From positions 1 to 44,889 of the forward strand of contig CAYZKT010000003.1 in NCBI GenBank assembly GCA_964478885.1: 44,889 bases of DNA, given 5' to 3'. Below the pieces are notes generated by a model. The model saw only the letters and a program-made list of their open reading frames with translations. It had not been told where the DNA came from and made no database searches. The position numbers and the translations under genes were made by a program. Below, piece by piece: positions 5,825 to 39,790 of this stretch; within the stretch, counting starts at the first letter, position 1, and each line of letters opens with the position of its first letter. Source of the DNA: an uncultured Syntrophaceae bacterium (lineage in GTDB: Bacteria; Desulfobacterota; Syntrophia; Syntrophales; UBA2192).

Positions 5825-5859
5825 AGAGCGCCGGTTATCCAGGCCGGCGCTCTTTTTTT
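5825..5859 (+). terminator. intrinsic terminator between convergent genes
   Basis: Perfect 10-bp stem AGAGCGCCGG / CCGGCGCTCT with a 9-nt loop, followed by T7. It sits exactly between the MFS stop and the stop of the minus-strand operon. Confidence 0.75.
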
Positions 5860-7018
5860 ACCTTCGGGCAATCGCCCGGAGGATCGGCCCGCCATGGCGG
5901 CCGGCCATGTGCAGCGGTCTGAAGAGGTAATAGAGGGGGGAGAGCGGATCGGGCAGGGCCGAGGGGTTCCACTCGCCGGCGGCCAGCGTCGCCAGGAGCC
6001 TGCCGGCAAAGAGAAGCTGATCCCGCCTGCGATCCTTCGACTTCAGGTAGAAGAGGTACCGTGCCGGGTCCACGTCCGGGTCCACGGGGGTCTTCGCGAT
6101 GACATCCCGGGCCCGCCGCGCCAGGACCCTAACCATGAGGTCCGCCTCGATCCGGTCCGCGATCTCCTTCGGCAGGCAGGCACCCGTCAGGCGCTCGGCC
6201 AGGAGAAGCCCGAGCAGCAGGAGCCTCGTCACGCCGCAGCGCCCGGCAAGGTCGAGCGCCCGCAAAAGATCCGGGGGCGTCGGCGACGCGAGCAGGCCCG
6301 CCACGTCGCAGACCCAGCCCAGCTTGCACCACAGGTGCTTCGAGCCGTGCACGCAGAGCATCACGAGAGTTTCTTCCAGCGGGAGAACCGGATAATCCAT
6401 TCCGGCCCACGCTCGCCTCTCCAGCCTGGACCAGATACCGACCTTCCCGTGGTCGAACCCGAAATACCCGGGCACGACGGCCCATTGAAGCTCGACCTGC
6501 AGCTTCCCGTCGCGGCGTACGAAGGCCGTCTCGTATTCGGTTCGCCGGTGGGCCGCAAGTCGAGGCCCGACAAGCTCGGTTTGTGCCCTGTACCCCTGCA
6601 CATCGAGGACTTTCACGGCCCTGTGCAGCGTTTCCCCGGGGATGAGGATGTCCAGGTCCTTCGACTGCCGATATGCCGGATCACCATACAGCATGACGGA
6701 AAGGGCCGGCCCCTTGAAGGGGTATGCGGGGATGCCGGAAGACTCGAAGGCTTTCAGGATACGGGACAGTTCCGTGGCGAGCAGGAGCGACCGGACCGTG
6801 TTATTCTGATGAAGGCCGCGGAGGCGGTTTGCCGCGGCGCGGGGAACGGCTACGTTGAGAACGCCCGGAAGCGTCCTGCAAACAAGCGGGACCACGTTGT
6901 GCCACTCACAGAGGCCGGGGAAACGGTTCCAGTCGACACACTCCGGCACCGGCACCGTTTCACCCTTTCGGAAGGCGCCCCGGACACAGGTAAGCAGCAA
7001 TTCAGTTTCCGGGCGCAT
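5858..7018 (-). CDS. nucleotidyltransferase family protein (NTP_transf_5-like, the type seen in RiPP/lasso clusters)
   Basis: 386 aa starting MRPETELLLTCVRG...DWNRF..LCEWH.VVPLV, with a central SKDLDILI motif. It is the last gene of the operon and overlaps the upstream GT2 gene by 17 nt. Confidence 0.65.
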   Translation of the reverse strand: MRPETELLLTCVRGAFRKGETVPVPECVDWNRFPGLCEWHNVVPLVCRTLPGVLNVAVPRAAANRLRGLHQNNTVRSLLLATELSRILKAFESSGIPAYPFKGPALSVMLYGDPAYRQSKDLDILIPGETLHRAVKVLDVQGYRAQTELVGPRLAAHRRTEYETAFVRRDGKLQVELQWAVVPGYFGFDHGKVGIWSRLERRAWAGMDYPVLPLEETLVMLCVHGSKHLWCKLGWVCDVAGLLASPTPPDLLRALDLAGRCGVTRLLLLGLLLAERLTGACLPKEIADRIEADLMVRVLARRARDVIAKTPVDPDVDPARYLFYLKSKDRRRDQLLFAGRLLATLAAGEWNPSALPDPLSPLYYLFRPLHMAGRHGGPILRAIARR

Positions 7019-8024
7019 AGGGGAACACCTCCGTCGCCGGATCCCGTCCTGCGACAGCCGTAACGGATCGTACCGACCCGTTCAGAAGGGGCTGGAGCTT
7101 CCGGGCGTAGAGCCGTGGGATGACATGCGCCGGGTGCATCACGGACGCAGCAAGCAACGCCACGATCATCCCGAGCGGGCGCTGTTCGGCATAGTGCAGG
7201 GCCGCCCGCTGGTAGAGGCGTTCGCCCGCCTCCCGTCGGAATACTCGAGCCCGCTCGACGACAGGGAGTCCCTTCTCTCTCTCGACGAAGTCGCCGAGTG
7301 TCGGTTCCGGTAGTCCGTGTACCCTTGCCTCGCCGCAGGCGATTGCCCACCGGTGCAGCATCCTCTGCCGGGCATTCTGCGTCATCGTGAGCGACTCCCC
7401 GTGCAACCGGTAGAGAAGCAGGGGCTCGGAAACCTTGAGCATCAGGTGCCCTTTCTCCACCATGCGGATCCACAGGTCCACATCTTCGGCCGGCGAGAAG
7501 GCCTCCCGGTAGCCCTCCATGGCAAGGACGGTCTGACGATGCATCAGGGTGGAGGAATTGACGAAGTAGATGGGGCGGTTTTCCCGGACAAGCCGGTCAT
7601 ACTCGGCAGGCGTAAACGGGCCTTCCGTTCCCACGAGACCCAGGGGCTTTCCCGCGTGGTTGATGAAACAGGCGAGCGTTCCGACGATCTTCGTCTCCGG
7701 GTTTCGGCGCAGGAAGGCGATTTGCCGCTCGATTTTCTCCGGGAGGAAAACGTCGTCGGCGTCGAGGCGCGCCGCCCAATCGCAGCGGGCTTCCTCGAGG
7801 CCCCGGTTCCCCGCGGCGGCCACACCGCGGTTCTCCTGGCACAGGCAGCGGACGCGGGGGTCCCCGTCTGCGTAACGTCGGATGATCGAGGCCGTCGCAT
7901 CCGTGGAGCCGTCATCGACGAGCAGCAGCTCCAGGTCCCTGTGCGTCTGCGCCAGAACGCTTTCGACGGCCTGAGCCAAATATTTCTCCCCGTTATGAAC
8001 GGGTATGACGACGGACACTTTCAT
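7002..8024 (-). CDS. family 2 glycosyltransferase
   Basis: 340 aa with MKVSVVIPVHNGEKYLAQAVESVLAQTHRDLELLLVDDGSTD and a later LDADD motif, a classic GT2 (GT-A) signature. Confidence 0.85.
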   Translation of the reverse strand: MKVSVVIPVHNGEKYLAQAVESVLAQTHRDLELLLVDDGSTDATASIIRRYADGDPRVRCLCQENRGVAAAGNRGLEEARCDWAARLDADDVFLPEKIERQIAFLRRNPETKIVGTLACFINHAGKPLGLVGTEGPFTPAEYDRLVRENRPIYFVNSSTLMHRQTVLAMEGYREAFSPAEDVDLWIRMVEKGHLMLKVSEPLLLYRLHGESLTMTQNARQRMLHRWAIACGEARVHGLPEPTLGDFVEREKGLPVVERARVFRREAGERLYQRAALHYAEQRPLGMIVALLAASVMHPAHVIPRLYARKLQPLLNGSVRSVTAVAGRDPATEVFPYAPGN

Positions 8025-9906
8025 AGGGGATGATCTTGCCTTTTTTCCCGTCGGGGATCAGCTGGCACTCGGCGAGTTTCCGATAGGTGTCGTTCGTTCG
8101 CAGAAGCTCCGCGTGCGTGCCCTCGGCGACGAGGCGGTTTTCGTTCAACACCAGGATGCGGTCGCAGTCGGCAAACGTCGACAACCGGTGAGCGACGACA
8201 AAGAGCGTCTTGCCGCGGGTCTCGCGGGGGAGCGCCCGGAAGATCGACTTCTCCGTCAGGCCGTCGAGGGCCGCCGAGGGCTCGTCGAGGATGAGGATGT
8301 CAGGGTCCTTCACAAGCGCCCTGGCTATGGCAAGCCGCTGCTTCTGCCCTTCGGATAGATTCACGCCCATCTCGCCCACCTCGCTTCCGTATCCACCGGG
8401 AAGGGTCATGATGAAATCGTGGATGCCTGCAACGCTCGCGGCGCGGATGACCTCTGTCTCAGCGGCGCCGGGGTTGCCATAAAGAAGGTTTTCCAGGACC
8501 GTCCCGGAAAGGAGAATGGGGGCTTGCGCAACGTAGCCGATCCGTTTCCGCAGCGACCGGACGTCGTACTCCGATGCGGGCTTGCCGTCGTAGAAAATCT
8601 GGCCTCCCGTCGGATTGTAGAACCGCAGCAGGAGGCTCAGGAGCGTCGTCTTGCCCACGCCGCTCGGCCCCACGACGGCGATGTGTTCGCCCGGGCTGAC
8701 GCGGAAGGATACCTCGCTGAGCACGGGGTTTTTCGGGTCGTATTCGAAGGAGACGTTTTTGAACTCGACACCTCCTTCGAGCGCTTCGACCCTTTCACCC
8801 TTCTCCTCATGTTCTTCCGGCATCACATCCAGCAGGGCCGTGAGGCGTTCGAGCGATGCCCGGATATTCTGCATCTGCAGCCCCGTCGAGGTGAGTGACT
8901 GGGCCGGGCCGAAGACGCGGCCCAGGTAGGCCTGGAAGGCAAAGAGGGACCCCAGGCTCCAATGCCCCGTGATGACCCAGTAGGCGCCGATTGCGAAAAC
9001 GCAGAAGTTGACGAGGCTCGGCGTCGACGAAAGGGCAAGCCCCGTCACGGCGCCCACGACGGAGCGCTCCGCCGAGACCCGGAAGACCTGCCGCATGCCG
9101 TTCAGGATGCCCGCGACGGACTTCTTCTCGGCGGCGAAGGCCTTGACCAGCGGCATGGCGCTGAGTGTTTCCTGGAAGCCGCTCCTGTAGCGGGCATTCT
9201 CCTCGTTGCCCGCATGGTTCAGGGCATGCATCCGGTCGGAAAAAAACCGCAGGACAATCAGAAAAACCGGCACGGCGACGAGGGCCGCCAGCGCAAGCCT
9301 CCACTCGAGCCAGAACAGGAGGCAAAGCCCGCCGATGAAATACAGGATGTTCGTCAGGATGCCGACGAGGTTTCCCGACAGAAACCAGGTCACGCCTCCG
9401 ATGTCGCCTGTGATGCGCGCCATGAGATAGCCCGTCTGGTTCCGGTCGAAGAAGGACTTGGGAAGGCTGAAGGAGTGCTCCAGAACCGTCCTCTGGATGT
9501 CGAGGGTGACGTCCTGGCTGTAGCGCAGGAAGAACCAGCTCTGGAAAAGACCCATCCCGCGCGAGAAGAGGGCAAGGCCCACCATGACAAGGAGCACCCA
9601 GGGAAGAAGCGAAAGCTGTTTGCCCAGGATGACGTCATCGATGACAAACCGTGAGACAAGCGGCATGGGGAAGGCCATCAGGGCGTTAAGAAAGATAAAG
9701 CCTGCGCCCAGGGCCCCCTTCTTCCAGTGCCGCCGGAAAAACGGCAGGTGCCGGCGCAGGTTCGCTCCGATCCCGGCATAGGACTTCCCCCCCGCAATCC
9801 GGTCCTCCGGCGCCTTCCGCGCAAGCCCGCTTTTTAGATATTCAATCCAGGATTTCATGGCCAGAAAAAGGGGACCGTCCCCATGGATCCAAGATGCCAG
9901 TTTCAT
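7993..9906 (-). CDS. ABC exporter, fused permease/ATP-binding protein (MsbA-like type I exporter)
   Basis: 637 aa with an N-terminal 6-TM domain. It has Walker A GPSGVGKTT, signature LSEGQKQR and Walker B ILILDEP. No C39 peptidase domain is evident. An alternative start is M17 at 9858. Confidence 0.85.
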   Translation of the reverse strand: MKLASWIHGDGPLFLAMKSWIEYLKSGLARKAPEDRIAGGKSYAGIGANLRRHLPFFRRHWKKGALGAGFIFLNALMAFPMPLVSRFVIDDVILGKQLSLLPWVLLVMVGLALFSRGMGLFQSWFFLRYSQDVTLDIQRTVLEHSFSLPKSFFDRNQTGYLMARITGDIGGVTWFLSGNLVGILTNILYFIGGLCLLFWLEWRLALAALVAVPVFLIVLRFFSDRMHALNHAGNEENARYRSGFQETLSAMPLVKAFAAEKKSVAGILNGMRQVFRVSAERSVVGAVTGLALSSTPSLVNFCVFAIGAYWVITGHWSLGSLFAFQAYLGRVFGPAQSLTSTGLQMQNIRASLERLTALLDVMPEEHEEKGERVEALEGGVEFKNVSFEYDPKNPVLSEVSFRVSPGEHIAVVGPSGVGKTTLLSLLLRFYNPTGGQIFYDGKPASEYDVRSLRKRIGYVAQAPILLSGTVLENLLYGNPGAAETEVIRAASVAGIHDFIMTLPGGYGSEVGEMGVNLSEGQKQRLAIARALVKDPDILILDEPSAALDGLTEKSIFRALPRETRGKTLFVVAHRLSTFADCDRILVLNENRLVAEGTHAELLRTNDTYRKLAECQLIPDGKKGKIIPYESVRRHTRS

Positions 9907-9950
9907 GCCCGATGCGAAAGGGGCCTGTCCCCTTTTTCATCATCATGTCA

Positions 9951-10538
9951 TCAAGGCAGGGTTCGCTCATCCACGAAGATCCGAAAGGGCCGCCGGATCG
10001 TCCAGAAGCTGAAGCCTGAGGGGCGCCGCCCGATTATGCGCCTTCCCAGGACAAGCTGCATCTCCCTTGCCCCGTCGCGCTCGAAGGCGATGACTCTCGG
10101 ACGCAGGGGGGGAGGAAGAAGCGCCCGGAAAATCCCGCAACGGGCAAGGCCCCGGTAGCAGGGGGTCAGGATGTAGGACGCCAGATGATCCGCCCTTCGG
10201 GCGGCGCGGATGCAGGCGGCAAGCTGGCGCCCCGCGAGGCCGCCTGCAACGGGCATCAGCTTCCCCCTGCGCTCTACCTCCACGGCGCGGCCGACGAGAT
10301 CCGCCTGCCAGACGATCCAGCTATCCGCGTGCGGGTTCGCGTCCCCCCTCGTCCGGATCCCGTCAGGCCCGGCGGAGATGACACGGTGTACGACGCGCTC
10401 CGTCTGCCACGAAAGGACGAAGATGATCACATCCCCCGGCCTTACTTCTTCGGCACGGCAGGGGATGAAGCGGATCCGGTCCCCCGGCCGGAAAAGGGGC
10501 CGCATGCTGTCGCCGCGGCAGAAGAGTTCACCTTCCAT
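9951..10538 (-). CDS. S24/S26-type serine peptidase-like protein (candidate leader peptidase)
   Basis: 195 aa. The N-terminus MEGELFCRGDSMRPLFRPGDRI carries the GDSM.P nucleophile motif of LexA/signal-peptidase-fold enzymes, followed by VVHRVI. The C-terminal ~90 aa have no family I recognise. The start overlaps the upstream gene by 11 nt. Confidence 0.55.
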   Translation of the reverse strand: MEGELFCRGDSMRPLFRPGDRIRFIPCRAEEVRPGDVIIFVLSWQTERVVHRVISAGPDGIRTRGDANPHADSWIVWQADLVGRAVEVERRGKLMPVAGGLAGRQLAACIRAARRADHLASYILTPCYRGLARCGIFRALLPPPLRPRVIAFERDGAREMQLVLGRRIIGRRPSGFSFWTIRRPFRIFVDERTLP

Positions 10539-11460
10539 GCGCCGTCAACTCCCGTCGACCTCGGATTAGGCCTCTATCCGCTTTTTCCAGAGCAACCTCG
10601 ATCGTCTCCCAGAAGCGCCCCGTGAGGCTCAGACGGAGGATATGGGACGGAACGGAGGCTGCCAATCCGGCGGCATTGGCGAAGATCTCGCCCTTCAGGG
10701 GTAAGGTTTCGAAAGCACGGGACGTCGTCCGCACCGAGTTGAAGATCGTCTCGGCCGCATGGGCGAGGATGACCGTCGCCGCGGCACGGCCCGCAGGCAC
10801 CGCTTCGTCAACGCCGGCCTGGGCAAGGAAAAAGACCGCAGACAGATCGACGCCGCGGTTGATATCCCACGCGTCGCCATCGGATCCGACGCCAACGCGG
10901 CTCCACGTCGGCAGGGGATGTACAGCGAATCCCCCTTCCCGCTTTCGCACGGCCAGTGCGAGATCATCGCCGAGGACCGTCCATTTCCGCGGCAGCCGCA
11001 GGCAGGCCGTGGACTTCCCGACGCCGCTTCTGCCGACGAGCAGCACCCCCCGGCCGTCACGCTCCACGAGTGCGGCGTGGAGCGGAAGACCGCCCCGGCG
11101 CACCGTCGATTCGTACAGGGGCATCAGGGCATGCCTCATCTGCTCCCTGACCCGGCTGGAATTATCGGTCCGGTGAAGCCTGCAGACACTCTCGCGAAGC
11201 GTTTCATGGCGCCAGACTTCGAGATGTGGGAATATACCGACTCGCCAACCGCCCCCGAAGCAGCCGCGCGGCGGCAGCGCACGGCCGCCGTTCCCCGCAG
11301 CCCCACCATGCGGAAATGTCTCGAAGCGGATCATGCAGTCCGGATCGGCCTGCGACGGTGCGAGCGAGAGCAACCGTGCAAACCCGTCGGCCCACTCCAG
11401 GGCCTCTTTGGCGGGGCGTATACCCCAGGATTGACCGTCGGAAAGGCTAAACGAGTACAT
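10528..11460 (-). CDS. HPr-kinase-like P-loop protein, paralogue 1 (ScmC / HprK-related type)
   Basis: It has LLVGRSGVGKSTACLRLPRKWTVLGDDLA, matching the HprK C-terminal P-loop plus DD motif. The start is taken at MYSFSLSDG (ATG 11458-11460), which overlaps the peptide stop as TGATG and gives 310 aa. The track ORF extends to 11478. Confidence 0.7.
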   Translation of the reverse strand: MYSFSLSDGQSWGIRPAKEALEWADGFARLLSLAPSQADPDCMIRFETFPHGGAAGNGGRALPPRGCFGGGWRVGIFPHLEVWRHETLRESVCRLHRTDNSSRVREQMRHALMPLYESTVRRGGLPLHAALVERDGRGVLLVGRSGVGKSTACLRLPRKWTVLGDDLALAVRKREGGFAVHPLPTWSRVGVGSDGDAWDINRGVDLSAVFFLAQAGVDEAVPAGRAAATVILAHAAETIFNSVRTTSRAFETLPLKGEIFANAAGLAASVPSHILRLSLTGRFWETIEVALEKADRGLIRGRRELTAHGR

Positions 11461-11870
11461 CACGCCCCCGCGTTGCAATTTTCCAGATCACCGTAGCCGT
11501 AGACATTCGATCCCCCGTCACAGCAATAATTCCCCGCCCACTCCCCGCTCCAGCACATTCCCGACGTGATGTTTCCATCGCTGCACTGCTCGTAGGCCTG
11601 ACCGCCGGGAACGCAATTGCACCCGCCAACCCATGGGACACCTCCCGTGGACGAGTAATCGGCCCCGGTTTCGCAGCAGGAGTCGCAGCCGCAGGCGGAG
11701 AGTCCGGATCCGCACCATTCCGCCCCGGTGCCCGTCCCGCAACGCGTGGTTTCCTTGCAGCTTCCCAACGCCTGATACGTTCCGTTTCTGCACGAGATGA
11801 ACTCCCCGCACACCTGGGGTCCCTTCATGTCGACGAGAAGAGGGGGTTCGTAGCGAAATCTTGTTTTCAT
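11460..11870 (-). CDS. Cys/Gly-rich precursor-like peptide 1 (136 aa, 16 Cys)
   Basis: MKTRFRYEPPLLVDMKG... leader is shared with the two paralogues. The ATG forms an ATGA overlap with the stop of the upstream kinase-like gene (11867-11870). It fills the gap between same-strand genes. Confidence 0.7.
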   Translation of the reverse strand: MKTRFRYEPPLLVDMKGPQVCGEFISCRNGTYQALGSCKETTRCGTGTGAEWCGSGLSACGCDSCCETGADYSSTGGVPWVGGCNCVPGGQAYEQCSDGNITSGMCWSGEWAGNYCCDGGSNVYGYGDLENCNAGA

Positions 11871-12799
11871 TGAAATCCTGTTCTTCTCTTATCAAGGAGC
11901 CAGTCCCCTTCTTCCAGCGCTTCCTCGATCCTCTCCCAGAACAGGCCCGTGAGACTCAGGCGAAGGCGGTACGCGGGGATCGCCAAGGCTGCCGCCGCCG
12001 CGTTGTGGTAGAGGGCCTTTTTCACGCTTGCATCTTCCCCGTTCGGGAACCCGAAATCGATCGACCGGAACACCTCGAGCGCCGACCCGGCCATGGAAAT
12101 TGCCGCAGCGCTCTTTTTCAGATGCCGGCATTCGTCCCCGGGCGATTGCGCCAGGAAAAACACGGCGACAAGGGGAACCGACGCCTCCGACCGGCACCTT
12201 CCCGACTCGAAGCCTTTCCGAATGGTACTCCACGTCGGGAGCGGATGGGCCCGGTAGTTTCCATACCCGTCGCGCACCACCAGGCAGAGATCGTCACCCA
12301 GCACCCGCCAGGAATGCGGAAGCCTGCGACAGGCGGTGGATTTTCCCTCGCCGCTCCGGCCCGCCAGGATCACGCCCGATCCGCCGATCTCGATCAGGGC
12401 CCCGTGAAGGGGCAAACCCCCGCGCCTCAGGGTCTCCAGATAAACGGGCATCAGCGCGCGGCGCATCTGGCGGCTGCGTCCAGGCTCGTCCACATCGGGA
12501 ATCACTTTGCAGAGGACCTCCCGGATCTCCGGGTGCTCGAAGAGCGCCTGGTCCGGGTACTCGCGTATTCTCCAGTCCCCGGCTGTCGGGGCCTTTGCGT
12601 AACGGCACAGTACAGGCTCGAAGAACTCGCCGGGCTTGCGTGACATGAGCTCGACATGGACATGCCGACTTGCCCGGCCTTGGCCCGGCAGCAGGCCCAT
12701 GGCCGACGCAAATTCCGCCAGCCAGCCTTCGGTTGGCCCATCAGCCTCGAAGGCCCAGACGGCATCATGAGTGAAAGGCATATGAAACCTCAAAGGCAT
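11867..12799 (-). CDS. HPr-kinase-like P-loop protein, paralogue 2
   Basis: It has ILAGRSGEGKSTACRRLPHSWRVLGDDLC. The track ORF runs to a GTG at 12922, but the first 41 codons are rich in A/T-ending codons, unlike the rest. The ATG at 12799 (MPLRFHMPF...) gives 310 aa, the same length as paralogue 1. Confidence 0.65.
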   Translation of the reverse strand: MPLRFHMPFTHDAVWAFEADGPTEGWLAEFASAMGLLPGQGRASRHVHVELMSRKPGEFFEPVLCRYAKAPTAGDWRIREYPDQALFEHPEIREVLCKVIPDVDEPGRSRQMRRALMPVYLETLRRGGLPLHGALIEIGGSGVILAGRSGEGKSTACRRLPHSWRVLGDDLCLVVRDGYGNYRAHPLPTWSTIRKGFESGRCRSEASVPLVAVFFLAQSPGDECRHLKKSAAAISMAGSALEVFRSIDFGFPNGEDASVKKALYHNAAAAALAIPAYRLRLSLTGLFWERIEEALEEGDWLLDKRRTGFQ

Positions 12800-12912
12800 G
12801 ATTTTTTCATCCCCCGACACGGCCTTTGCGACCTTCTCCCCAAAGCGGCCTCCCGGTCTGTGTCCACTGTAAGAAGGAAAAGGCATCCGGCCGGCAATAC
12901 TGACAGCGAATA

Positions 12913-13263
12913 TCAAAAACACTGAGTTCCTCCGGTTTCACACAGATACGAGGCGCGAGTGCCGGCCTCGCAACGGTATCCGGCCGAAGACCCGCCACTG
13001 CACCAGCACATGACCTGGATGCCTCCCTCGACGACGTCGCCGCTGTAGCAACAGGAGTAGGTGCACCCCGAGGGGTGGCAGGCGTTGGTGCCGTTCGTGC
13101 AGCCGTTTGCCTCGGTGCCATTTCCACAGGCGGCACTGACAACGCAGCTTCCCTCCGTGCAGTTCTCCACGTTGTATCCACCGTTGCACGAGGTATACCC
13201 AAGGGCGGAATGGTCGCGCATGTCGACCAGGACCGGTTTTTCATATCGCACATGCTTGTTCAT
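12913..13263 (-). CDS. Cys/Gly-rich precursor-like peptide 2 (116 aa, 14 Cys)
   Basis: MNKHVRYEKPVLVDMRDHSALGYTSC... has the shared leader and the shared SCC / CxC pattern. AGGA lies about 9 nt upstream of the ATG. Confidence 0.7.
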   Translation of the reverse strand: MNKHVRYEKPVLVDMRDHSALGYTSCNGGYNVENCTEGSCVVSAACGNGTEANGCTNGTNACHPSGCTYSCCYSGDVVEGGIQVMCWCSGGSSAGYRCEAGTRASYLCETGGTQCF

Positions 13264-13376
13264 TTCGATGATCCTGCCGTGTGGGTTCTCTAGTTCTTTG
13301 CCACCCTTTCAGCACACGGGTCCAGCCATGAGGGGCTACAGATTCCGGATCAGCAAGCACAACCTGGCAACGCCGT

Positions 13377-14321
13377 TTAAACCCATCCGCATGCTCTCTC
13401 CTCGTGCCGTCTCCCTTCATGCCGGCCGGGAAACCCATCGCCGCCCAATACCGCCTCGATCTTTTCCCAGAACCGGCCCGTGAGGCTCACGCGGAGCAGG
13501 TAGGCAGGCACGGCCAGCGAGAAGTCGGCGGCATTCTCGAAGACCTGCGTCCCGATATCCGGTTCCTTTCCCACCAGCTTGAACGGCCCCACGGACCAGA
13601 AGACCTCCATGGCCGAGCGGCGGCAGGCCACGGCGGCTTCGCCCTTACCCACCGGCACCGCCACATCTTCGTTTGACTGCTCGAGGAAGAAGATCGCCTC
13701 CAAGGGCACCGCTCGAATGACGTCCCACGAACCCTGCTGTCCGGCGCGAAGGGCGCTCCAGGTCGGAAAAGCGTGCGCACAGTACTTCCCTGTTGCATCG
13801 CGGACCACGAGGGCCAGATCATCGGCAAGGCCCCTCCACGGGGACTGGAGACGCCTGACGCATGTCGACTTGCCGATGCCGCCGCGGCCGGCCAGGAGAA
13901 TCCCTCTGCCGTCTCGCTCCACGAATGCGGCGTGGACGGGAAAGCCGCCCTTCCCGAGGATCTTCAGGTAAAGGGGCAGAAGAGCATGGCGCATGTCTTC
14001 GATTTCTTTCCCTTCGCTTCCCTTCGGTGGCAGTAGGCACACGATGTCCAGCCCTGCCGGTTCGTTTTCGATCACGGCGCCCGGAATCCGGCGGAAATCC
14101 CACAGCGGCCCTTCCCGGGTCGGGATACCCGACACCCCGGGAGTCCTCTTCATGCGGGCCGAGCGATGGAACGTGACGGTCTCTGCGGGGCAGTTGCAGG
14201 AAATGGGAGGAAGGCCCAGGATGAATGCATACTGAGAAAGCCATTCTTCCGTCCCAGTCGTCGATCGCAGAAACCATCGTGTACCGTCGACAAGTCGAAG
14301 TTCGTACATCCCTTTATCCAT
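13377..14321 (-). CDS. HPr-kinase-like P-loop protein, paralogue 3
   Basis: It has LLAGRGGIGKSTCVRRLQSPWRGLADDLA. The C-terminal motif RVSLTGRFWEKIEAVL is shared with paralogues 1 and 2. An alternative start at M5 (14309, MYELRLVDG) would also give 310 aa. Confidence 0.7.
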   Translation of the reverse strand: MDKGMYELRLVDGTRWFLRSTTGTEEWLSQYAFILGLPPISCNCPAETVTFHRSARMKRTPGVSGIPTREGPLWDFRRIPGAVIENEPAGLDIVCLLPPKGSEGKEIEDMRHALLPLYLKILGKGGFPVHAAFVERDGRGILLAGRGGIGKSTCVRRLQSPWRGLADDLALVVRDATGKYCAHAFPTWSALRAGQQGSWDVIRAVPLEAIFFLEQSNEDVAVPVGKGEAAVACRRSAMEVFWSVGPFKLVGKEPDIGTQVFENAADFSLAVPAYLLRVSLTGRFWEKIEAVLGGDGFPGRHEGRRHEERACGWV

Positions 14322-14351
14322 TCAAATCCATCGAAGTGCCACATGCGCACG

Positions 14352-14741
14352 TCACGCACAAGCGCCGTTGCAGTCCTCCAGGGCCATCGATCCATCGATG
14401 CAGACAGCCGACACCCGGCCGCCCGTGTAGCAGATATACGCTGCATTCGCCCCCGAAATGCACTGGCAACCAGACACGGTACCCCTCCCGCTCCCGTAAA
14501 ACCCCACCATCTGTCCATCCGCGCAGCACGTGTAGCAGTTTGAACTGGTTGAGCAGGCCCCGATTCCGTTTTCACAACCCCCCGTATATTGGCCATCCTG
14601 GCAGAAGCTGGTCGGAATGCAGGAACCGAGGGAGCACTCGAAATTGCACGAGCCGCCGTCGCAGGTACCCGAGTAGCCCAAGGCGCTGCCCGTGTTCATG
14701 TCGAAGAGAAGCGGGGGTTCGTACCTGAATCGTCCGGTCAT
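14352..14741 (-). CDS. Cys/Gly-rich precursor-like peptide 3 (129 aa, 16 Cys)
   Basis: MTGRFRYEPPLLFDMNTGSALGYSGTC... is the first of the three peptide genes and lies 59 nt downstream of the second rSAM/SPASM gene. Confidence 0.7.
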   Translation of the reverse strand: MTGRFRYEPPLLFDMNTGSALGYSGTCDGGSCNFECSLGSCIPTSFCQDGQYTGGCENGIGACSTSSNCYTCCADGQMVGFYGSGRGTVSGCQCISGANAAYICYTGGRVSAVCIDGSMALEDCNGACA

Positions 14742-14800
14742 GTCCTGTCATCCTACTCGGTCTGCCGTGAACGCACCTGTTATGCCGTTTTCGATCTTTC

Positions 14801-15997
14801 TCATCCTCGCGCCGCAGAGGCCCCAACCGGAGGTGCCTGATCAGCTTGCTGGCGGGCACCCTGCAGCCTCGTCCCCGGGAAGAGCCCCTCACGCCTGGCC
14901 TCCTCGCAGAACCAATAGGGCGCCCAGAGGCTGCGGCTGCGGTAGTAGTTCTGGGCAACGCAGCTCCCCAAACAGATCCCTTTCATGAGGCAGTCCCCGC
15001 AGATCCCTTCCAGCTTCCCGGGCATCCCTTCACGGATTTCACGCAGGACGGGGTTGTCTTTCCACACCCCGGAAAGGTCATCCTTCGCTGCATGGCCGAA
15101 GACCAGCTCGGGGACAGACTCGCCGATCCCGCAGAGGGCGTAGGACCCGTCGGCCAGGACACCCAGGATGCCGATAATTCCGCAGACGCCGCAGCCCGAC
15201 CCATCGCGGCCGTACATTCGGCCCAGAGACCGGAAGGCGGCGGGGTGGGAATAGAAGAGTCGAAGCTTCGTCGCACGGGAAAGTCTGCCCTCGACGTCCT
15301 CGCCCAGCTCAACCAGTTCCCTGACGGAAAGTGTCTCGCCGGCCTGGTGCATCTTCACGCCCCGCGCCGTGGGCTGGACGATGTTGAACTTGACCGACGA
15401 GGCACCCTCGCTTTCGGCAAGGCGCACGAGCGCCTCGATCTGGCCCACGTTCCGGCGCATCAGGGTCATGATCACCTGGGGCCGTATGCCCGCCGCGACG
15501 AGGTTCCGGATCCCCTGCAACGCGGCCTCGAAGCAGCCGTGGACGCCCCGGACCCACTCGTGCGTCTCTGCGTCGGCCCCGTCGAGGCTCACGGAAATGT
15601 GATAGATCCCGGAGCGGGCGAGGTCCCTTGCCAGTTCAGGCGTGCAGAGAACCCCGTTGGTCTCCGTGCTGAACCGGATCTTTTCGTCCCGGAGGATCGC
15701 GAGGATGTCCCCGATACGGGGATGCATGAGCGGCTCGCCGCCCGTGAGCTTCACGGACGAGAGGCCGAGAGGTCCTGCCTGTTGCAGGATGCGCCGAAAC
15801 AGGTCCGGATCGATGGCCCGGTACTGTCGCTTTGCCGTCTGGTGGGGCGGCTCGATCCAGCAGTGCCGGCACCGCAGGTTGCATCCCTCGGTAAGATAGA
15901 AATAGAGCGTACTGAGAGGTGGAACAGCACCGCCTGCAGCCTTGGCCGAAGCGTCGCCCTTGAAGACGGACCATGTCTTTCCGGAACTGACCATCAT
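14801..15997 (-). CDS. radical SAM/SPASM domain protein (PqqE-like peptide maturase)
   Basis: 398 aa. It has the CNLRCRHC CxxxCxxC cluster, GGEPLMH, and a C-terminal Cys-rich SPASM region (CGVCG...LCG...CGDCLMKGICLGSC). The start forms an ATGA overlap with the upstream gene. Confidence 0.85.
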   Translation of the reverse strand: MMVSSGKTWSVFKGDASAKAAGGAVPPLSTLYFYLTEGCNLRCRHCWIEPPHQTAKRQYRAIDPDLFRRILQQAGPLGLSSVKLTGGEPLMHPRIGDILAILRDEKIRFSTETNGVLCTPELARDLARSGIYHISVSLDGADAETHEWVRGVHGCFEAALQGIRNLVAAGIRPQVIMTLMRRNVGQIEALVRLAESEGASSVKFNIVQPTARGVKMHQAGETLSVRELVELGEDVEGRLSRATKLRLFYSHPAAFRSLGRMYGRDGSGCGVCGIIGILGVLADGSYALCGIGESVPELVFGHAAKDDLSGVWKDNPVLREIREGMPGKLEGICGDCLMKGICLGSCVAQNYYRSRSLWAPYWFCEEARREGLFPGTRLQGARQQADQAPPVGASAARG

Positions 15998-17676
15998 AAC
16001 CCTCCCCGACCGGCCGCCCTCGGGCGAGATGCCCGCGGTTCGAGCCTGACCAGATAAACGTTCTTTTGCTTGCAGGATTTGCGGCAGCAGGACTTCGCAC
16101 GCGGTGGTGGCATAAAGGCAGGCGGTGACTGCCCGTCATAGGGATTGCCTCCCCCGATGCTCAACGGATTGGTCGTCCACACGTAGATCCCGTCGATGCC
16201 CCGTTCGCGAAGACGCCTGATCAGCCTCTCTCGTTCCCCGGGGTTCCCGGAAACGAGGAAAACCCGGTCGAAGAAGAGAGGGCCCGCATGCTCCATGCTC
16301 CCGGCCTCACTGAACAGGATCACATCCCCCGCCGAGGTGTGCTGTTTGAGAAACTCGATTCGCCGGGCATTGTAGTCCTTGTACATCCAGAGATCGGTGC
16401 GCGCGTCCTGAAAGCTGTTCAACAGGGCCACGCCGCCGAAGAAAAGGAGCACCACGTACATCCCTCGGGAGTCGAAGATCCGCCGGTGATCCGCTCCCAG
16501 CAGAAGGACCACGAAGGGGACGAGCGGCAGCCAGACGGCAAGGACGCGGCTGACGACGGGCCTATGGATCACGGCGCCGCAGAGAACGCCGAGGATCACC
16601 GTGCAGACCAGGATCGGCTCGAGAGTCTCTTCCCGCCTCATCAAGCGGTCCATCCGTCCCGGGAAGCCGTAGAAACCGAACAGGACGGCAGGAAAGAACG
16701 CCATGAGATGGGACACGGTGATCCGTGCGGCCGAGAGCAGAACGGCGGCAAACATCAGCAGGACGGGCAGGACGGTCATGACGGCCCGCCCGACCGGGGT
16801 AACGTCACTGCCTCGCGACGCCGCAAGAAGGACGAGGGACAGGACCATGCTTCCGGCAAACAGGGCGAAGCGGATCCCCGAGAGCCCGTAGAAGGGCAGC
16901 ATCAACTTCAGGTAGGACCCGGGAAACCCTCCGTGAAAAATCGCATCGTGCAGCACGATAGTGGCAAGCGCCAGCGCGGCCCCCGCCGCATAAGCGGCCA
17001 ATTCCCTCCATCGCTTCTGCAGGGCGAGAACGGTTCCCGCAGAAAGGAGATAGGAGAAGGCCGCGAACAGGAAGTCCAGGCTGGCAAGGACGGAGACCCC
17101 GGCCAGGAAGGACGACCCGGCAAGATCGGCCCGGCCCTCGGTTCCCGCCTTGAAGTAACGGACGAGCAGGAAGAGCCCCATGACGATCAACAGGAGGGCA
17201 AGGGATTGCCCGGTGAATCTGAACGCGAGGAGAAGGACGGGTGAGCCGCCCAGGAAGAGTGCAAGGAGGAGATAATGAAGAACGCCCCGCGGCATCATCC
17301 GGTCCAGGGTCACGCCGAGGGACAGCGCGGCGAGAAATACGAACAGGACCGGCGTGAAATCGACGCTCCGCTCGCCGAATACGGGGTGGAACAAGCTCGC
17401 GACGAAGGGAAACAGCGGGGGGGGGACGGCGTAGAGCCTGTCGCCGCGGGACTCGAAGAGGTCCCGCGGTCCCGCGAGATCTTTCGGCTCGAAGCCGAAG
17501 CGGAAAGCCGGCGCATCGATCGCAAGTGCCCCGTTCAGGGAGAAGTTCTTCATCTGGACGTAATGGACGCCCTCGAGGTTGGTTTGCAGGCCGGGGGGCG
17601 CGAGGAAAAAGCACAGGCCCGCAAGCGCCGCGAGGACGGCAACAAGGAAGATCGTTTCCCCGGGGTTTCTCGTCAT
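15994..17676 (-). CDS. polytopic integral membrane protein with C-terminal soluble domain (possibly GT-C/ArnT-like)
   Basis: 560 aa from the ATG at 17674-17676 (MTRNPGETIFLVAVLAALAGL...). The longer track ORF to 17826 would overlap the upstream rSAM gene by 134 nt. It has at least 10 hydrophobic segments. The first-loop motif EGVHYVQMKNFSLNG resembles the first periplasmic loop of GT-C enzymes. The fold assignment is tentative. Confidence 0.5.
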   Translation of the reverse strand: MTRNPGETIFLVAVLAALAGLCFFLAPPGLQTNLEGVHYVQMKNFSLNGALAIDAPAFRFGFEPKDLAGPRDLFESRGDRLYAVPPPLFPFVASLFHPVFGERSVDFTPVLFVFLAALSLGVTLDRMMPRGVLHYLLLALFLGGSPVLLLAFRFTGQSLALLLIVMGLFLLVRYFKAGTEGRADLAGSSFLAGVSVLASLDFLFAAFSYLLSAGTVLALQKRWRELAAYAAGAALALATIVLHDAIFHGGFPGSYLKLMLPFYGLSGIRFALFAGSMVLSLVLLAASRGSDVTPVGRAVMTVLPVLLMFAAVLLSAARITVSHLMAFFPAVLFGFYGFPGRMDRLMRREETLEPILVCTVILGVLCGAVIHRPVVSRVLAVWLPLVPFVVLLLGADHRRIFDSRGMYVVLLFFGGVALLNSFQDARTDLWMYKDYNARRIEFLKQHTSAGDVILFSEAGSMEHAGPLFFDRVFLVSGNPGERERLIRRLRERGIDGIYVWTTNPLSIGGGNPYDGQSPPAFMPPPRAKSCCRKSCKQKNVYLVRLEPRASRPRAAGRGGL

Positions 17677-17692
17677 TCCATTCCTCTTCGGC

Positions 17693-18805
17693 TCAACCCA
17701 GCAGGGCCCGGTCCGGAAGCCTGCCCCCCTCGGCGAGGAACTTCCGCAGGCAGGCGTCGGGGCTCGGGTGGTTGACCTCGCCCGTAAGCGTGTAGGAGAG
17801 CCCCGGGCAGTTGCCGGTACAGGCATTCACGTAAGGGCACCCCTCGCAGAAGGAAAAGTTCGTCAGGGGGATCTCCTGCCTTCGCCTGAGGGTGCTGAGC
17901 GCTTCGTGGTCTCTCCATACCATCCCGAGGTCGTCGCGGTTGATGCGGCCGAGTTCGATGTGGGACAGCATCGTGCAGGGTGTGATGACGCCGTCGGCCC
18001 GCACGGCGAGGCCCGACCGGTAACAGCCGCACCCCGTCAGATAGCCCCGTTTCGGGGCCGTCAGCTCTTTTTTCCCGAGCCGGGCTTCCTCCATGTCGAG
18101 CCAGCCCCGCGCCTCGGCCAGCGGCCCCGCCATGGCCTGGATCCGGCCGTTGTATTTCCTAGTCAGGCGAAGGAGCGTCTCCATGGCTATCATCCGCTCA
18201 TCCGTGGTGAGCTGCACCATTTCGGCGTTTTTCCTGCACAGGCCCATGGCCCCTGCGGAATTGGTCCCGAAGGAGGGAAGGCCGATGTCTTCCAGCAGGA
18301 ACCGGGCGACGGCGTCGAGGTCGTGGACGTTCTTGCGGTGGATCGTGACGCGCACCGCCGCGTGAATGCCATGCCGACGAAGGGTCATGAGACCCTCGAT
18401 CGCCTTCGCGAAGCTCCCCCTGCCCCGCATGGCGTCGTGGCTTGAGGGCATGGAGCCGTCGATGGAGACCTGGACGTAGTTGCAACGTTTTGTCGAGACG
18501 AGAAAAGCCGCCATGTCGTCGTCGATCAGCGTCCCGTTGCTGAGGACGGCAAAGCGCATCCGGTTGCGGACGATGCCGTCGACGATCTCCTTCAGGTCCT
18601 CCCGGATGAAGGGCTCGCCCCCCGCCAGCGTCACCTCCGTGACGGCGCAACGGTTCAGTTCCTCGAAAAAGCGCAGCCACTCTTCGGCCGGCAGATCTTT
18701 ACCCGCATCGCCGGGGCTCTCGAAATGATAGCAGTATCGGCACCGCAGGTTGCAGCGGTTCGTGATATCGATGTCGACCTTCTTCGGAGTCCGCATGAGT
18801 TTCAT
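17693..18805 (-). CDS. radical SAM/SPASM domain protein (PqqE-like peptide maturase)
   Basis: 370 aa. It has the CNLRCRYC cluster, GGEPFIRED, and SPASM cysteines (GCGC...PC...CEGCPYVNACTGNCPG). Confidence 0.85.
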   Translation of the reverse strand: MKLMRTPKKVDIDITNRCNLRCRYCYHFESPGDAGKDLPAEEWLRFFEELNRCAVTEVTLAGGEPFIREDLKEIVDGIVRNRMRFAVLSNGTLIDDDMAAFLVSTKRCNYVQVSIDGSMPSSHDAMRGRGSFAKAIEGLMTLRRHGIHAAVRVTIHRKNVHDLDAVARFLLEDIGLPSFGTNSAGAMGLCRKNAEMVQLTTDERMIAMETLLRLTRKYNGRIQAMAGPLAEARGWLDMEEARLGKKELTAPKRGYLTGCGCYRSGLAVRADGVITPCTMLSHIELGRINRDDLGMVWRDHEALSTLRRRQEIPLTNFSFCEGCPYVNACTGNCPGLSYTLTGEVNHPSPDACLRKFLAEGGRLPDRALLG

Positions 18806-18809
18806 TCGT

Positions 18810-19121
18810 TCAGCCTCGATCCCGAGTATCCACTCCTCGTCCCTGATCTAATTCATATCCCACCAGCCCCTGCGCCTCCAGCGCCGCGATGAACTGGCGG
18901 GCGTGCGCGCCGGCGTCCTCGGGCACGTCGTCGGCCTCCTCGCGGAGCCTTCCGACGATGGAATCCGCATCGTGTTTCCCGTCGAGGAGCTTCCAGATGA
19001 AAACCCCCGTGGGGTTGAGTCCGAAGGCGTTTCCCGTGTCGGGGTCGAAGAGGATCGCCCAGTCGTCGAATTCCTCGCGAAGGACGATCAGGGGGTTGGC
19101 AATGGGATTTTTGACATCCAC
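18810..19121 (-). CDS. PqqD family peptide chaperone (RRE-type)
   Basis: I start it at GTG 19119-19121 (VDVKNPIANPLIVLREEFDDWAILFDPDTGNAFGLNPTGVFIWKLLDG...), preceded by AAGGAA at 7-nt spacing, giving 103 aa. The W.L.DG and I...L motifs are typical of PqqD-like RiPP recognition elements. The track ORF upstream of this start has non-coding-like composition. Confidence 0.7.
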   Translation of the reverse strand: MDVKNPIANPLIVLREEFDDWAILFDPDTGNAFGLNPTGVFIWKLLDGKHDADSIVGRLREEADDVPEDAGAHARQFIAALEAQGLVGYELDQGRGVDTRDRG

Positions 19122-19359
19122 GGCGCGTTCCTTTCGTTTAACCGGTGACGGGTAATTTGACGCTCCACCGCGCGGGCGCTCCTCCCGGGCGGCTGAAAAC
19201 AACCTCATTTCCAGCAAATACACCTGAAGTGCCGGATATTTTTGCAAGAAGCATACCGCGTGGAATCGTCAGGCAATTTCGTGCTTTAGGGTTGAACTTC
19301 CCCGGGAAAAAAGGTATGAATTTGGCGTTCATCGCAGCAGGGTCAAAAGGGGTGATGCG

Positions 19360-20646: not shown

Positions 20647-20918
20647 GCGACCTCAAGGCAAAGCTGGGCCTCAACGTCTTCAAGCCACTCCCCGCCCCGC
20701 ACATCCGGATCCGACAGGGCATGGAGCGCGACCCGCGGCTGAAGGCGGCCGTGAGGGCCTGCCCTGCGGGACTTTACGCGGAAGGCGCCGACGGGGTGTT
20801 CACCCTGACCATCGACGGCTGCCTCGAGTGCGGGACCTGCCGCATCGCCTGCGGCACCGGGGTGCTCGAGTGGGGCTACCCGGAGGGCGGCGCGGGCGTA
20901 CAGTTCCGCTTCGGATAG
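20643..20918 (+). CDS. fixX: ferredoxin-like protein FixX
   Basis: 91 aa (MSDLKAKLGLNVF...CPAGLY...CLECGTCRIAC...). It is embedded in a longer off-frame track ORF. The ATG at 20643 overlaps the fixC stop. Confidence 0.75.
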   Translation: MSDLKAKLGLNVFKPLPAPHIRIRQGMERDPRLKAAVRACPAGLYAEGADGVFTLTIDGCLECGTCRIACGTGVLEWGYPEGGAGVQFRFG

Positions 20919-39653: not shown

Positions 39654-39705
39654 AAAAATCTTCATTCCATCCGACCCTGTCCCCTGAACCCTGAACCCTG
39701 TCCCC
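39609..39705. repeat. tandem-repeat-armed hairpin overlapping the 5' end of the radical SAM gene
   Basis: The 5' arm is GGGGTTCGGATTCAGGGTATCGGGACTG. The 3' arm is CCGACCCTGTCCCCTGAACCCTGAACCCTGTCCCC. The segment 39684-39701 is the reverse complement (17/18) of 20931-20948. Confidence 0.65.
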
Positions 39706-39790
39706 AGTCTTTTATCCCGACAAAATATCGTTTGACAAGGCAGTTTTCGTGTGTAGATTATTTTCAATTGAAATTCTCGGAGGAATCTTG

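Follow-up and report, generated by a model that had tools for sequence, protein, structure and literature searches.

This report concerns an operon of fourteen genes, related to the SynChlorMet (SCM) cassettes, that is carried on 44,889 nucleotides (nt) of DNA from an uncultured Syntrophaceae bacterium (contig CAYZKT010000003.1, positions 1 to 44,889; this whole stretch is referred to below as the window). SCM cassettes were defined in silico more than a decade ago, with S. fumaroxidans, C. limicola and M. paludicola as type species, and are already known as a set of named but uncharacterised TIGRFAMs/NCBIfam proteins. Here, we describe the genes of the window operon, their family memberships and their conservation, and discuss the operon as a pathway that probably produces ribosomally synthesised peptides with post-translational modifications (RiPPs).

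Organisation of the operon

An earlier note on this DNA, drawn up from the letters alone, had described fourteen tightly packed genes on one strand at 5858-19121 (-), and both the list of open reading frames (ORFs) and a reading of the sequence confirm this arrangement. The genes are given here in transcription order, with the models or methods that identify each product in brackets, followed by the region upstream of the first gene.

18810-19121, minus strand: ScmD, PqqD-family RiPP recognition element (RRE) and peptide chaperone, GTG start (TIGR04248, PF05402)
17693-18805, minus strand: ScmE, radical S-adenosylmethionine (SAM)/SPASM protein (TIGR04250)
15994-17676, minus strand: polytopic membrane protein, 560 amino acids (aa), predicted GT-C fold (AlphaFold2, AF2, and Foldseek)
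14801-15997, minus strand: ScmF, second radical SAM/SPASM protein, its ATG overlapping the stop codon of the membrane protein gene as ATGA (TIGR04251)
14352-14741, minus strand: peptide 3, putative divergent long-type ScmA, 129 aa, 16 Cys, leader RFRYEPPLLFDM (short-type hidden Markov model, HMM)
13377-14321, minus strand: ScmC3, P-loop protein paired with peptide 3 (TIGR04249)
12913-13263, minus strand: peptide 2, putative long-type ScmA, 116 aa, 14 Cys, leader VRYEKPVLVDM (short-type HMM)
11867-12799, minus strand: ScmC2, paired with peptide 2 (ATG at 12799; the ORF runs up to a GTG at 12922)
11460-11870, minus strand: peptide 1, putative long-type ScmA, 136 aa, 16 Cys, leader RFRYEPPLLVDM, overlapping ScmC2 as ATGA and ScmC1 as TGATG (short-type HMM)
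10528-11460, minus strand: ScmC1, paired with peptide 1 (TIGR04249)
9951-10538, minus strand: soluble S26B signal-peptidase-like peptidase, candidate leader peptidase (TIGR02228)
7993-9906, minus strand: ABC exporter, permease and ATPase fused (PF00664, PF00005)
7002-8024, minus strand: GT2 glycosyltransferase (PF00535)
5858-7018, minus strand: NTP_transf_5 nucleotidyltransferase-fold protein, final gene of the operon (PF14907)
19122-19359, no strand: divergent intergenic region between ScmD and fixC, 238 bp, presumed from its position to hold the operon promoter

The widest spacer within the block measures 113 nt. Counting gaps as positive and overlaps as negative, the first seven junctions in transcription order are +4, +16, -4, +59, +30, +113 and +113 nt, and the last six are -4, -1, -11, +44, -32 and -17 nt. 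The translational coupling signals listed in the earlier note are all present in the sequence, namely ATGA at 15994-15997 and at 11867-11870 and TGATG at 11458-11462, together with overlaps between ScmC1 and S26 (11 nt), between ABC and GT2 (32 nt) and between GT2 and NTP_transf_5 (17 nt). Translation of ScmD most likely starts at the GTG at 19121. For ScmC2 the most likely start is the ATG at 12799, since the match to the ScmC model opens at residue 48 of the longer ORF.

Membership of the SCM cassette

Four NCBIfam models identify the core proteins, each above its curated cut-off: ScmD (TIGR04248, 125.7 bits against 100, with PF05402 at 1.1e-17), ScmE (TIGR04250, 600.9 bits against 400, covering the model in full length), ScmF (TIGR04251, 597.5 bits against 400) and ScmC1, ScmC2 and ScmC3 (TIGR04249, 207.6, 217.0 and 234.3 bits, respectively, against 125). 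The SynChlorMet identity (ScmC/D/E/F) put forward in the earlier note is thus correct, and judged by these matches the operon qualifies as a genuine SCM cassette with respect to ScmC, ScmD, ScmE and ScmF. Scores on the radical SAM families WgkB, GeoRSP, NirJ, AhbD, PapB, AlbA, PqqE and MftC were far under their cut-offs. All family labels given in the earlier note, including those of the peptidase, exporter, GT2 and NTP_transf_5 protein, were recovered in HMM scans against Pfam and NCBIfam. Its reference to an HPr-rel-A system did not hold: TIGR04352 gives the ScmC proteins 27.6-30.5 bits against a cut-off of 200, and TIGR04353 gives ScmD 28.6 bits against 35.

The further claim that this is a RiPP-type maturation operon, with a PqqD-like RRE and two SPASM radical SAM enzymes, is supported. 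In our judgement the operon is probably a clade-specific, enlarged SCM cassette, encoding a RiPP-type pathway to cross-linked, decorated and exported Cys-rich peptides. New here are the three precursor-ScmC modules, the cores of about 95-115 residues and the pair of GT-C and GT2 enzymes, as well as a wider definition of the precursor family and its repeat. Literature searches with the cassette, the accession, the gene names, kinase plus SPASM, and the type species plus radical SAM found no SCM cassette paper in the library searched, and none describing a product, in line with the earlier note, which knew of no characterised product for the full combination.

Precursor peptides

The three Cys-rich proteins of the window (116-136 aa, 14-16 Cys) are paralogues of 36-41% identity. 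They share the N-terminus R-[FV]-R-Y-E-x-P-x-L-x-D-M within a leader of about 20-25 residues, a motif that resembles the YxxPxL leader motif of lasso peptides and the N-terminus of PqqA. No Pfam or NCBIfam model matches them, and TIGR04252 (SCM_precur_ScmA, cut-off 35 bits) gives no hit to them even at E<=10. Small ORFs of other loci bear the same leader, in the form K-[YW]-x-[KP]-P-x-[LI], and their core consists of 2-8 repeats, each about 10 residues long; short relatives match TIGR04252 from end to end (28.6 bits, E 1.3e-6, under the 35-bit cut-off). A precursor family is therefore already assigned to the cassette. The earlier note had supposed that no precursor was assigned, which the existence of this model contradicts.

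An HMM built only from 22 short precursors from outside the Syntrophales clade (the short-type HMM) was searched against the 361 small ORFs of the window. It picks out exactly the three window peptides (peptide 2 with E 1.8e-12, peptide 1 with 6.2e-7 and peptide 3 with 8.3e-7), the next-best ORF scoring 0.03. Because of this match and of the shared leader, repeat and gene position, the window peptides are best called ScmA-like, that is, enlarged and divergent precursors that the narrow ScmA model misses.

The repeat is clearest in the short precursors, where Gly stands at position +3 from Cys in 92% of 50 Cys sites, Ala or Pro at +6 in about 60%, and successive Cys are spaced by 10-11 residues. 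In the long precursors, Gly follows at +3 at 57% of 242 Cys sites. Peptides 1, 2 and 3 of the window contain 10, 8 and 8 CxxG motifs, compared with 3.4, 2.5 and 3.0 in shuffled sequences, a 2.6-3.3-fold enrichment. Cys spacing in the long-type cores is irregular and includes CC and CxC pairs, and the C-terminal thirds of the window peptides retain the 10-residue spacing.

Of the 21 loci in which ScmC is clear, about 18 encode a peptide bearing the leader motif, either immediately upstream of ScmC or next to the S26 gene. The precursor gene of a Lentisphaerota-like subgroup sits directly downstream of the S26 gene (L017 7037-7246, L018 11948-12157), and a 182-aa database protein (P0324), which also ties the peptides to the cassette, represents a fusion of, or read-through between, S26 peptidase and precursor. 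An exhaustive HMMER search with the precursor profile among 1.84 billion representatives returned 382 clusters (at 50% identity) with E<=1e-3; a word-indexed search with the same profile returned only 23. Most of the 382 clusters are peptides of 60-140 residues with leader and repeats, and among those checked none is named. Long repeat proteins that top the exhaustive search, such as P0252 (1062 aa, with dozens of perfect FSCHAGTEFA 10-mers), were set aside as probable low-complexity or assembly artefacts.

ScmC proteins and precursor-ScmC modules

ScmC3 contains a P-loop (GRGGIGKST) and an LADD motif, which align with the P-loop and ADD motif of HPrK/P. The catalytic domain of HPrK/P has a PEPCK-like P-loop fold, and the Asp of its ADD motif is catalytic. 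An ScmC profile aligns to the solved structures 1knx (E 1.7e-5) and 1jb1 over the P-loop and (A/G)DD motif only, and in 30 ScmC sequences G145, G150, K151, T153, D167 and D168 are invariant. The AF2 model of ScmC3 (predicted local distance difference test, pLDDT, 83.4) has PEPCK as its top Foldseek match over both domains (E 1e-8, TMq ~0.5). Scores on PF07475 are 17.8-24.9 bits against a gathering score of 33.3, which therefore denotes membership of the superfamily, not of the family. PF27840 ('ScmC') is recorded in the precomputed annotations of ScmC homologues; since this family was absent from our local copy of Pfam, the local scan gave only sub-threshold matches to Hpr_kinase_C. Judged by alignment and predicted structure, ScmC is a PEPCK/HPrK-superfamily phosphotransferase-like protein outside the lasso-kinase families. 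The likeness to HPr kinase proposed in the earlier note thus stands at the P-loop and Asp motif and is confined to it.

Each precursor of the window is followed by its own ScmC gene, and in two instances stop and start codons overlap. In six of the seven modules of L001-L004, the peptide and the downstream ScmC have their best matches in the same window pair, and peptide-ScmC pairs are therefore inherited together. L001 has an orthologue of peptide 2 (96%) adjoining one of ScmC2 (84%); orthologues of peptide 1 (52-77%) in L001, L002 and L003 are followed by orthologues of ScmC1 (58-67%); and L004 has an orthologue of peptide 3 (81%) in the equivalent position. The ScmC paralogues of the window are only 38-39% identical, whereas the leaders are nearly identical, a contrast suggesting that the leader is recognised by ScmD and the core by ScmC.

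Module structure varies among the relatives. In L004 (12256-13329) and L003 (1303-2355), a second precursor-ScmC pair is followed by a third radical SAM gene, which is ScmF-like with 56% identity to ScmF, and some relatives therefore possess precursor-ScmC-radical SAM triplet modules. Four precursor genes, in tandem or dispersed, are found in L005 (10885-12484 and 18490-18918) and L011 (7761-9011), and the L005 peptides contain 19-21 Cys with many CC pairs.

ScmD and the radical SAM enzymes

Both radical SAM enzymes have intact motifs: in ScmE, the CxxxCxxC motif (C18/C22/C25) and the SPASM cysteines C277, C320, C323, C329 and C333 are conserved, as are C39/C43/C46 and the SPASM cysteines in ScmF. 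Among solved sequences, the thioether-forming SkfB comes closest to ScmE (2e-18), with PqqE and chain 5wgg (CteB, deposited as 'Radical SAM domain protein') next. Natural fusions of ScmD and precursor, found in the database proteins P0018 and P0392, tie the peptides to the cassette. These proteins (231 and 216 aa, respectively) combine an ScmD-type PqqD domain with an ScmA-type precursor that has the leader YEPPKL or YEAPKL and a CxxG core. The contig of P0018 holds two such fusion genes, the second encoding a 235-aa PqqD protein, beside an RND efflux system and not a full cassette.

Membrane protein, glycosyltransferase, nucleotidyltransferase, peptidase and exporter

The 560-aa membrane protein has no Pfam hit and no hit in a PDB sequence search, and scores weakly on NF047440 (63 bits against 200). 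Its AF2 model, built with 26 homologues, has a pLDDT of 79.7. In Foldseek, GT-C glycosyltransferases account for all 13 hits with E<=1e-3 and for most of the first 19 (STT3/OST, ArnT, DPY19, ALG12/ALG9, PglB, Pmt4 and AftD; E 6e-6 to 1e-3), with a probability of 1.0 for STT3, ArnT, DPY19, ALG12 and PglB and TM-scores of only 0.4-0.5. Among the acidic residues of the first loop, E35 is invariant and D66 nearly so, and one homologue carries PF13231. None of the 108 database relatives has a name, and all of them are from Syntrophales-like sources; wherever checked (L001, L002, L004, L005, L030 and L031), the homologues lie inside SCM cassettes together with GT2 and NTP_transf_5. The predicted structure thus points to a glycosyltransferase of the GT-C fold, apparently specific to the Syntrophales-like clade.

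The GT2 protein matches PF00535 (3.2e-35), and its closest solved relatives are chondroitin synthase and GalT1, ArnC being weaker. Among the loci mapped by tblastn it occurs only in the four that bear the GT-C protein (L001, L002, L004 and L005), and it is also found in L030 and L031. Since GT2 resembles polysaccharide-type GT-A enzymes more closely than polyprenyl-phosphate sugar synthases, its link to the GT-C protein is drawn from their co-occurrence.

The NTP_transf_5 protein matches PF14907 at 2.7e-53 (181.6 bits against a gathering score of 31.2), and K102-G103, D121xD123 and D238 are conserved in 11 cassette homologues. A PDB sequence search with it gave no hit, and a literature search on PF14907 turned up only a phosphonate paper.

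The S26 peptidase, of the archaeal/ER type, scores barely over the cut-off of TIGR02228 (52.6 bits against 51.85). Across 15 cassette homologues, Ser11 (in GDSMRP), His51-Arg52 and Asp66/Asp72 show conservation of at least 90%. The sequence has no hydrophobic span and so no membrane anchor, which is atypical for S26B, and the gene adjoins ScmC in 14 loci. The ABC exporter matches NCBIfam peptide and lipid exporter models, all below cut-off, and HMM scans found no C39 peptidase domain in it.

Conservation across loci

Scanning genomes with the ScmC alignment yielded 28 loci, all in metagenome-assembled genomes (MAGs), for which gene maps were made by tblastn. The block is conserved as a unit: the full block is present in L001, L002 and L004 at 53-96% aa identity, L001, from Syntrophaceae bacterium UBA5744, being the closest relative. 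Roughly 15 additional loci, belonging to other phyla, repeat the core gene order, as ScmD - ScmE - (GT-C) - ScmF - small ORF - ScmC - S26 - ABC - (GT2) - NTP_transf_5. This order, or near variants of it, is found in MAGs labelled Syntrophales, Desulfobacteraceae, Thermodesulfobacteriota, Nitrospirae and Omnitrophota, and rearranged or partial cassettes in Aminicenantes, Lentisphaerota and Verrucomicrobia MAGs.

The cassette is regularly accompanied by the S26 peptidase (in 14 loci) and the ABC exporter (in 16), and NTP_transf_5 has a tblastn match in about 11 loci, nine of them above 60 bits. The GT-C protein, GT2 and long precursors occur, among the scanned loci, only in the Syntrophales-like L001-L005. 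The earlier note had called the enzyme combination unusual. This is not so for the S26 peptidase, the ABC exporter and often NTP_transf_5, which are usual for the cassette across phyla, but it holds for the GT-C protein, GT2, the long precursors and the multiplied ScmA-ScmC modules, which are clade-specific.

In L031, a Y1 transposase gene (11693-12352) interrupts the cassette. L030 (ENA contig_84660) contains merged and split gene calls, such as a 689-aa 'ScmC + Radical_SAM', that look like frameshifted assembly. Five loci from Acidobacteriota MAGs (L022 and L024-L027) hold a distant sister system with one SPASM radical SAM gene, a shortened ScmC-like P-loop protein and an S26-like gene. Its precursor, at about 9330-9520 in L024-L026 (...AAYQPPEVVRVSLRPEEAVLGHCKTFSSTGPAAASCRTFFCKTFGS), follows a similar leader logic and has a different, non-repetitive core.

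Comparison with known systems

With other SCM cassettes, the window operon shares ScmC/D/E/F, a small Cys-rich precursor directly upstream of ScmC, the leader and the CxxG repeat. It differs in having three precursor-ScmC modules in place of one, in precursors of 116-136 aa with 14-16 Cys that are invisible to the ScmA model, and in the gene for the predicted GT-C glycosyltransferase between ScmE and ScmF, plus GT2.

Lasso peptide clusters (paeninodin with PadeK; pseudomycoidin with PsmK/PsmN) also combine a P-loop protein of the HPr-kinase superfamily, a DxD NTP-transferase-fold protein, an ABC exporter, a PqqD-type RRE and a YxxPxL-type leader. In contrast to these, the window has neither an asparagine-synthetase-like lasso cyclase nor a B-type (transglutaminase-like) leader protease; its core chemistry would be due to radical SAM enzymes, its precursors have no conserved C-terminal Ser, and ScmC and ScmD fall below the lasso/HPr-rel-A cut-offs.

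SPASM radical SAM enzymes acting on Cys-rich and often repetitive cores are likewise found in sacti- and ranthipeptide systems (AlbA, SkfB, CteB, PapB/freyrasin, GggB/streptosactin). Freyrasin contains repeated CxxxD units, and the 4-residue Cys-to-acceptor rings of streptosactin fit the C-x-x-G spacing of the window cassette. However, no model of this group reaches its cut-off on the window proteins (PapB NF047865, 95.7 bits against 340; AlbA NF012164, 83 bits against 850), StsB NF045574 scoring far below cut-off on both radical SAM proteins. The window also has two radical SAM enzymes, a discrete RRE, a kinase-like partner, an S26 peptidase and a core of up to about 110 residues, and its thioether, unlike theirs, is a suggestion by analogy.

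Pyrroloquinoline quinone (PQQ) and mycofactocin pathways (PqqA/D/E; MftA/B/C) share the discrete PqqD-family chaperone and the PqqE-like SPASM enzyme, and PqqA starts with W-x-K-P-x-F-x-D-L, resembling the window leader. TIGR02109 (PqqE) gives the two radical SAM proteins 89.9 and 82.8 bits against 381, however, and TIGR03859 (PqqD) gives ScmD 22.6 bits against 46; the MftC model is also far below cut-off. The window core has a Cys repeat in place of Glu/Tyr or Val-Tyr, and an exporter and glycosyltransferases are present.

Finally, GT-C protein glycosyltransferases (PglB/STT3, PMT, DPY19, ArnT) share with the window membrane protein the predicted fold and the invariant acidic residue E35 of the first loop. 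The window protein differs in having no sequence-level family membership and in being encoded inside a RiPP-type operon; we know of no GT-C enzyme assigned to RiPP tailoring.

Proposed pathway

A model of the pathway can be drawn from what the analysis shows, namely family memberships, intact catalytic motifs, predicted folds and conserved synteny. In this model, ScmD would bind the shared YxxPxL-type leader and present each precursor to ScmE and ScmF, which may then install a cross-link at each C-x-x-G unit. The link could be a thioether that joins the periodic Cys to a carbon close by, the candidate acceptors being Gly +3, which is invariant, or Ala/Pro +6. By analogy, a Cys thioether is the most likely type and the most economical reading, because Cys and Gly +3 are the only near-invariant core positions and SkfB is the nearest solved relative of ScmE. 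Four-residue sactionine rings have been described in streptosactin (PMC9389541).

Each ScmC, translationally coupled to its own precursor, would phosphorylate Ser or Thr of the core using ATP, and the NTP_transf_5 protein could elaborate the phosphate, for example with a hexose. The analogy here is with pseudomycoidin, where the HprK-family kinase PsmK phosphorylates the C-terminal Ser of the precursor, and PsmN, an uncharacterised NTP-transferase with a DxD motif, is needed for +162-Da hexose additions on the phosphate (PMC6993621). Since ScmC is far from the lasso kinases, the PsmK analogy builds on the shared superfamily and on the co-occurrence with NTP_transf_5. The soluble S26B peptidase is a candidate for removal of the leader, because the ABC exporter that would export the product has no peptidase (C39) domain. 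In the Syntrophales-like clade, GT2 and the GT-C enzyme may add a sugar, the latter on the outer face of the membrane from a lipid-linked donor.

Taken to its full extent, the model proposes an undescribed RiPP class. In such mini-proteins of about 95-115 residues, radical SAM enzymes would make many thioether rings at the periodic C-x-x-G units. A PEPCK-like kinase of its own would phosphorylate each mini-protein, which would also be glycosylated twice, on the phosphate via NTP_transf_5 and extracellularly by a dedicated GT-C enzyme. This complete version we offer as a speculative possibility, with the balance of probability well against it. Several observations weigh against the pathway model in general. 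The cross-link type, phosphorylation, hexose addition, leader cleavage site and GT-C topology are all analogies, and the parallel between the NTP_transf_5 protein and PsmN presumes that PsmN belongs to PF14907. ScmC matches the lasso/HPr-rel-A kinase model over the P-loop stretch only (27-30 bits against 200), and the precursors lack a conserved Ser at the C-terminus, the site used in lasso peptides. A clear assignment of GT2 as a polyprenyl-phosphate sugar synthase was rejected, its closest solved relatives being polysaccharide-type GT-A enzymes, and no N-x-S/T sequon is present in peptide 3. In L005, as in L011, four precursors share a single ScmC, and strict 1:1 pairing of peptide and ScmC is therefore not general. 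No precursor was found in L015.

Alternative explanations

The absence of a conserved C-terminal Ser would also suit a different role for ScmC, as an ATP-driven, precursor-specific chaperone or scaffold, or a self-protection factor, that keeps each long, Cys-rich core reduced and competent for modification by the radical SAM enzymes, with NTP_transf_5 and the glycosyltransferases acting independently. One ScmC paralogue per precursor paralogue, translational coupling through ATGA and TGATG, and the joint inheritance of peptide and ScmC would all be in keeping with such a role, and the divergence of ScmC next to nearly identical leaders argues for core-specific binding. However, the P-loop Lys/Thr and the Asp-Asp pair aligned with HPrK/P are invariant in 30 sequences, as expected of a phosphotransferase; ScmC co-occurs with NTP_transf_5 as PsmK does with PsmN; and a single ScmC accompanies four precursors in L005 and L011. 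We regard the chaperone role as unlikely, although it is the best placed of the three alternatives weighed here. A second proposal takes its lead from PQQ and mycofactocin and sees the operon as a route to a cofactor or small molecule in place of an exported peptide, in which the PqqD/PqqE-like proteins would process the peptide, the peptidase would excise the C-x-x-G units of about 10 residues into many copies of a thio-compound or redox cofactor and ScmC would activate an intermediate. The architecture of PqqD and PqqE-like proteins, the PqqA-like leader, cores of 2-8 near-identical short units as in multi-core precursors, and the appearance of the heme d1/heme b radical SAM families (NirJ, AhbD) among the next-best HMM hits are all compatible with it. 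Against this stand the dedicated ABC exporter conserved in 16 loci, the PQQ, mycofactocin and heme models far below cut-off, and the repeat borders, where positions -1 to -4 are variable and no cleavage motif is conserved. The irregular Cys spacing of the long-type cores, with CC and CxC pairs, also fits identical excised units poorly, and we consider cofactor biogenesis rather improbable.

CC and CxC pairs, and 14-16 Cys in 116-136 aa, would on the other hand be natural if the Cys-rich proteins were themselves the end products and carried ordinary disulfides or metal sites, as metallothionein-like or small secreted Cys-knot proteins, and the radical SAM enzymes performed non-Cys chemistry such as epimerisation or C-C links. 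The core is large for a RiPP, and SPASM enzymes catalyse many types of reaction. Yet periodic Cys and Gly +3 are the sole near-invariant core positions across phyla, the short relatives have just 2-6 Cys at a strict spacing of 10-11, which is not a disulfide-knot pattern, an N-terminal leader takes the place of a signal peptide, and the producers are Syntrophales-type anaerobes with a reducing cytoplasm; this proposal is very improbable. Three assignments to known pathways were rejected: a lasso cluster, as Pfam and NCBIfam scans of the 14 proteins found neither a lasso cyclase nor the B-type protease family; a PQQ, mycofactocin or heme d1 pathway, as scores were far below cut-off; and lanthipeptide-like phosphorylation and elimination, as there is no lyase or cyclase. 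The enlarged SCM cassette with a RiPP-type pathway thus remains our preferred reading of the operon.

Implications

The window and its relatives add to the SCM cassette a precursor family much wider than the ScmA model (the 382 clusters), a leader motif defined for the RRE, a C-x-x-G-x-x-A/P-x-x-x repeat by which the likely modification sites are pinpointed, and a conserved accessory set of candidate S26B leader peptidase, ABC exporter and NTP_transf_5. The system is therefore directly testable by co-expression and mass spectrometry. The duplicated precursor-kinase modules amount to a natural specificity experiment, and the window cores are among the largest proposed for a RiPP. The operon also places a predicted GT-C fold enzyme within a RiPP-type operon; if the twice-glycosylated, stapled mini-proteins proposed above are real, it would be the first case of a GT-C enzyme being recruited for the tailoring of a RiPP. 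Little is known of secondary metabolism in the hosts, which are uncultured, anaerobic, Syntrophales-like bacteria.

Flanking genes and other features of the window

No Rfam families or tRNAs were found within the window. Predicted promoters and terminators were no more numerous than in shuffled sequences, and a sigma-70 consensus scan of the ScmD-fixC spacer was empty. About 19 kb from the operon, at 38004-39767 (-), lies a separate gene for a 587-aa radical SAM protein (PF04055, 4.2e-11), situated between ABC-F-type and other genes, for which no link to the cassette was seen.

On one side, the operon is bounded by a convergent gene for a lactate-type transporter of the major facilitator superfamily (MFS) at 4500-5798 (+), and on the other by the divergent fixC at 19360-20646 (+). 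The product of fixC resembles FAD-dependent electron transfer flavoprotein (ETF)-quinone oxidoreductases (NF007450, 390 bits against a cut-off of 466). The small ORF after it, which together with fixC occupies 19360-20918 (+), resembles a ferredoxin-like fixX, and its L030 counterpart matches PF05187 (Fer4_ETF_QO). The flanks of the L030 cassette are as in the window, with fixC/fixX/ETF genes on one side and an MFS gene on the other.

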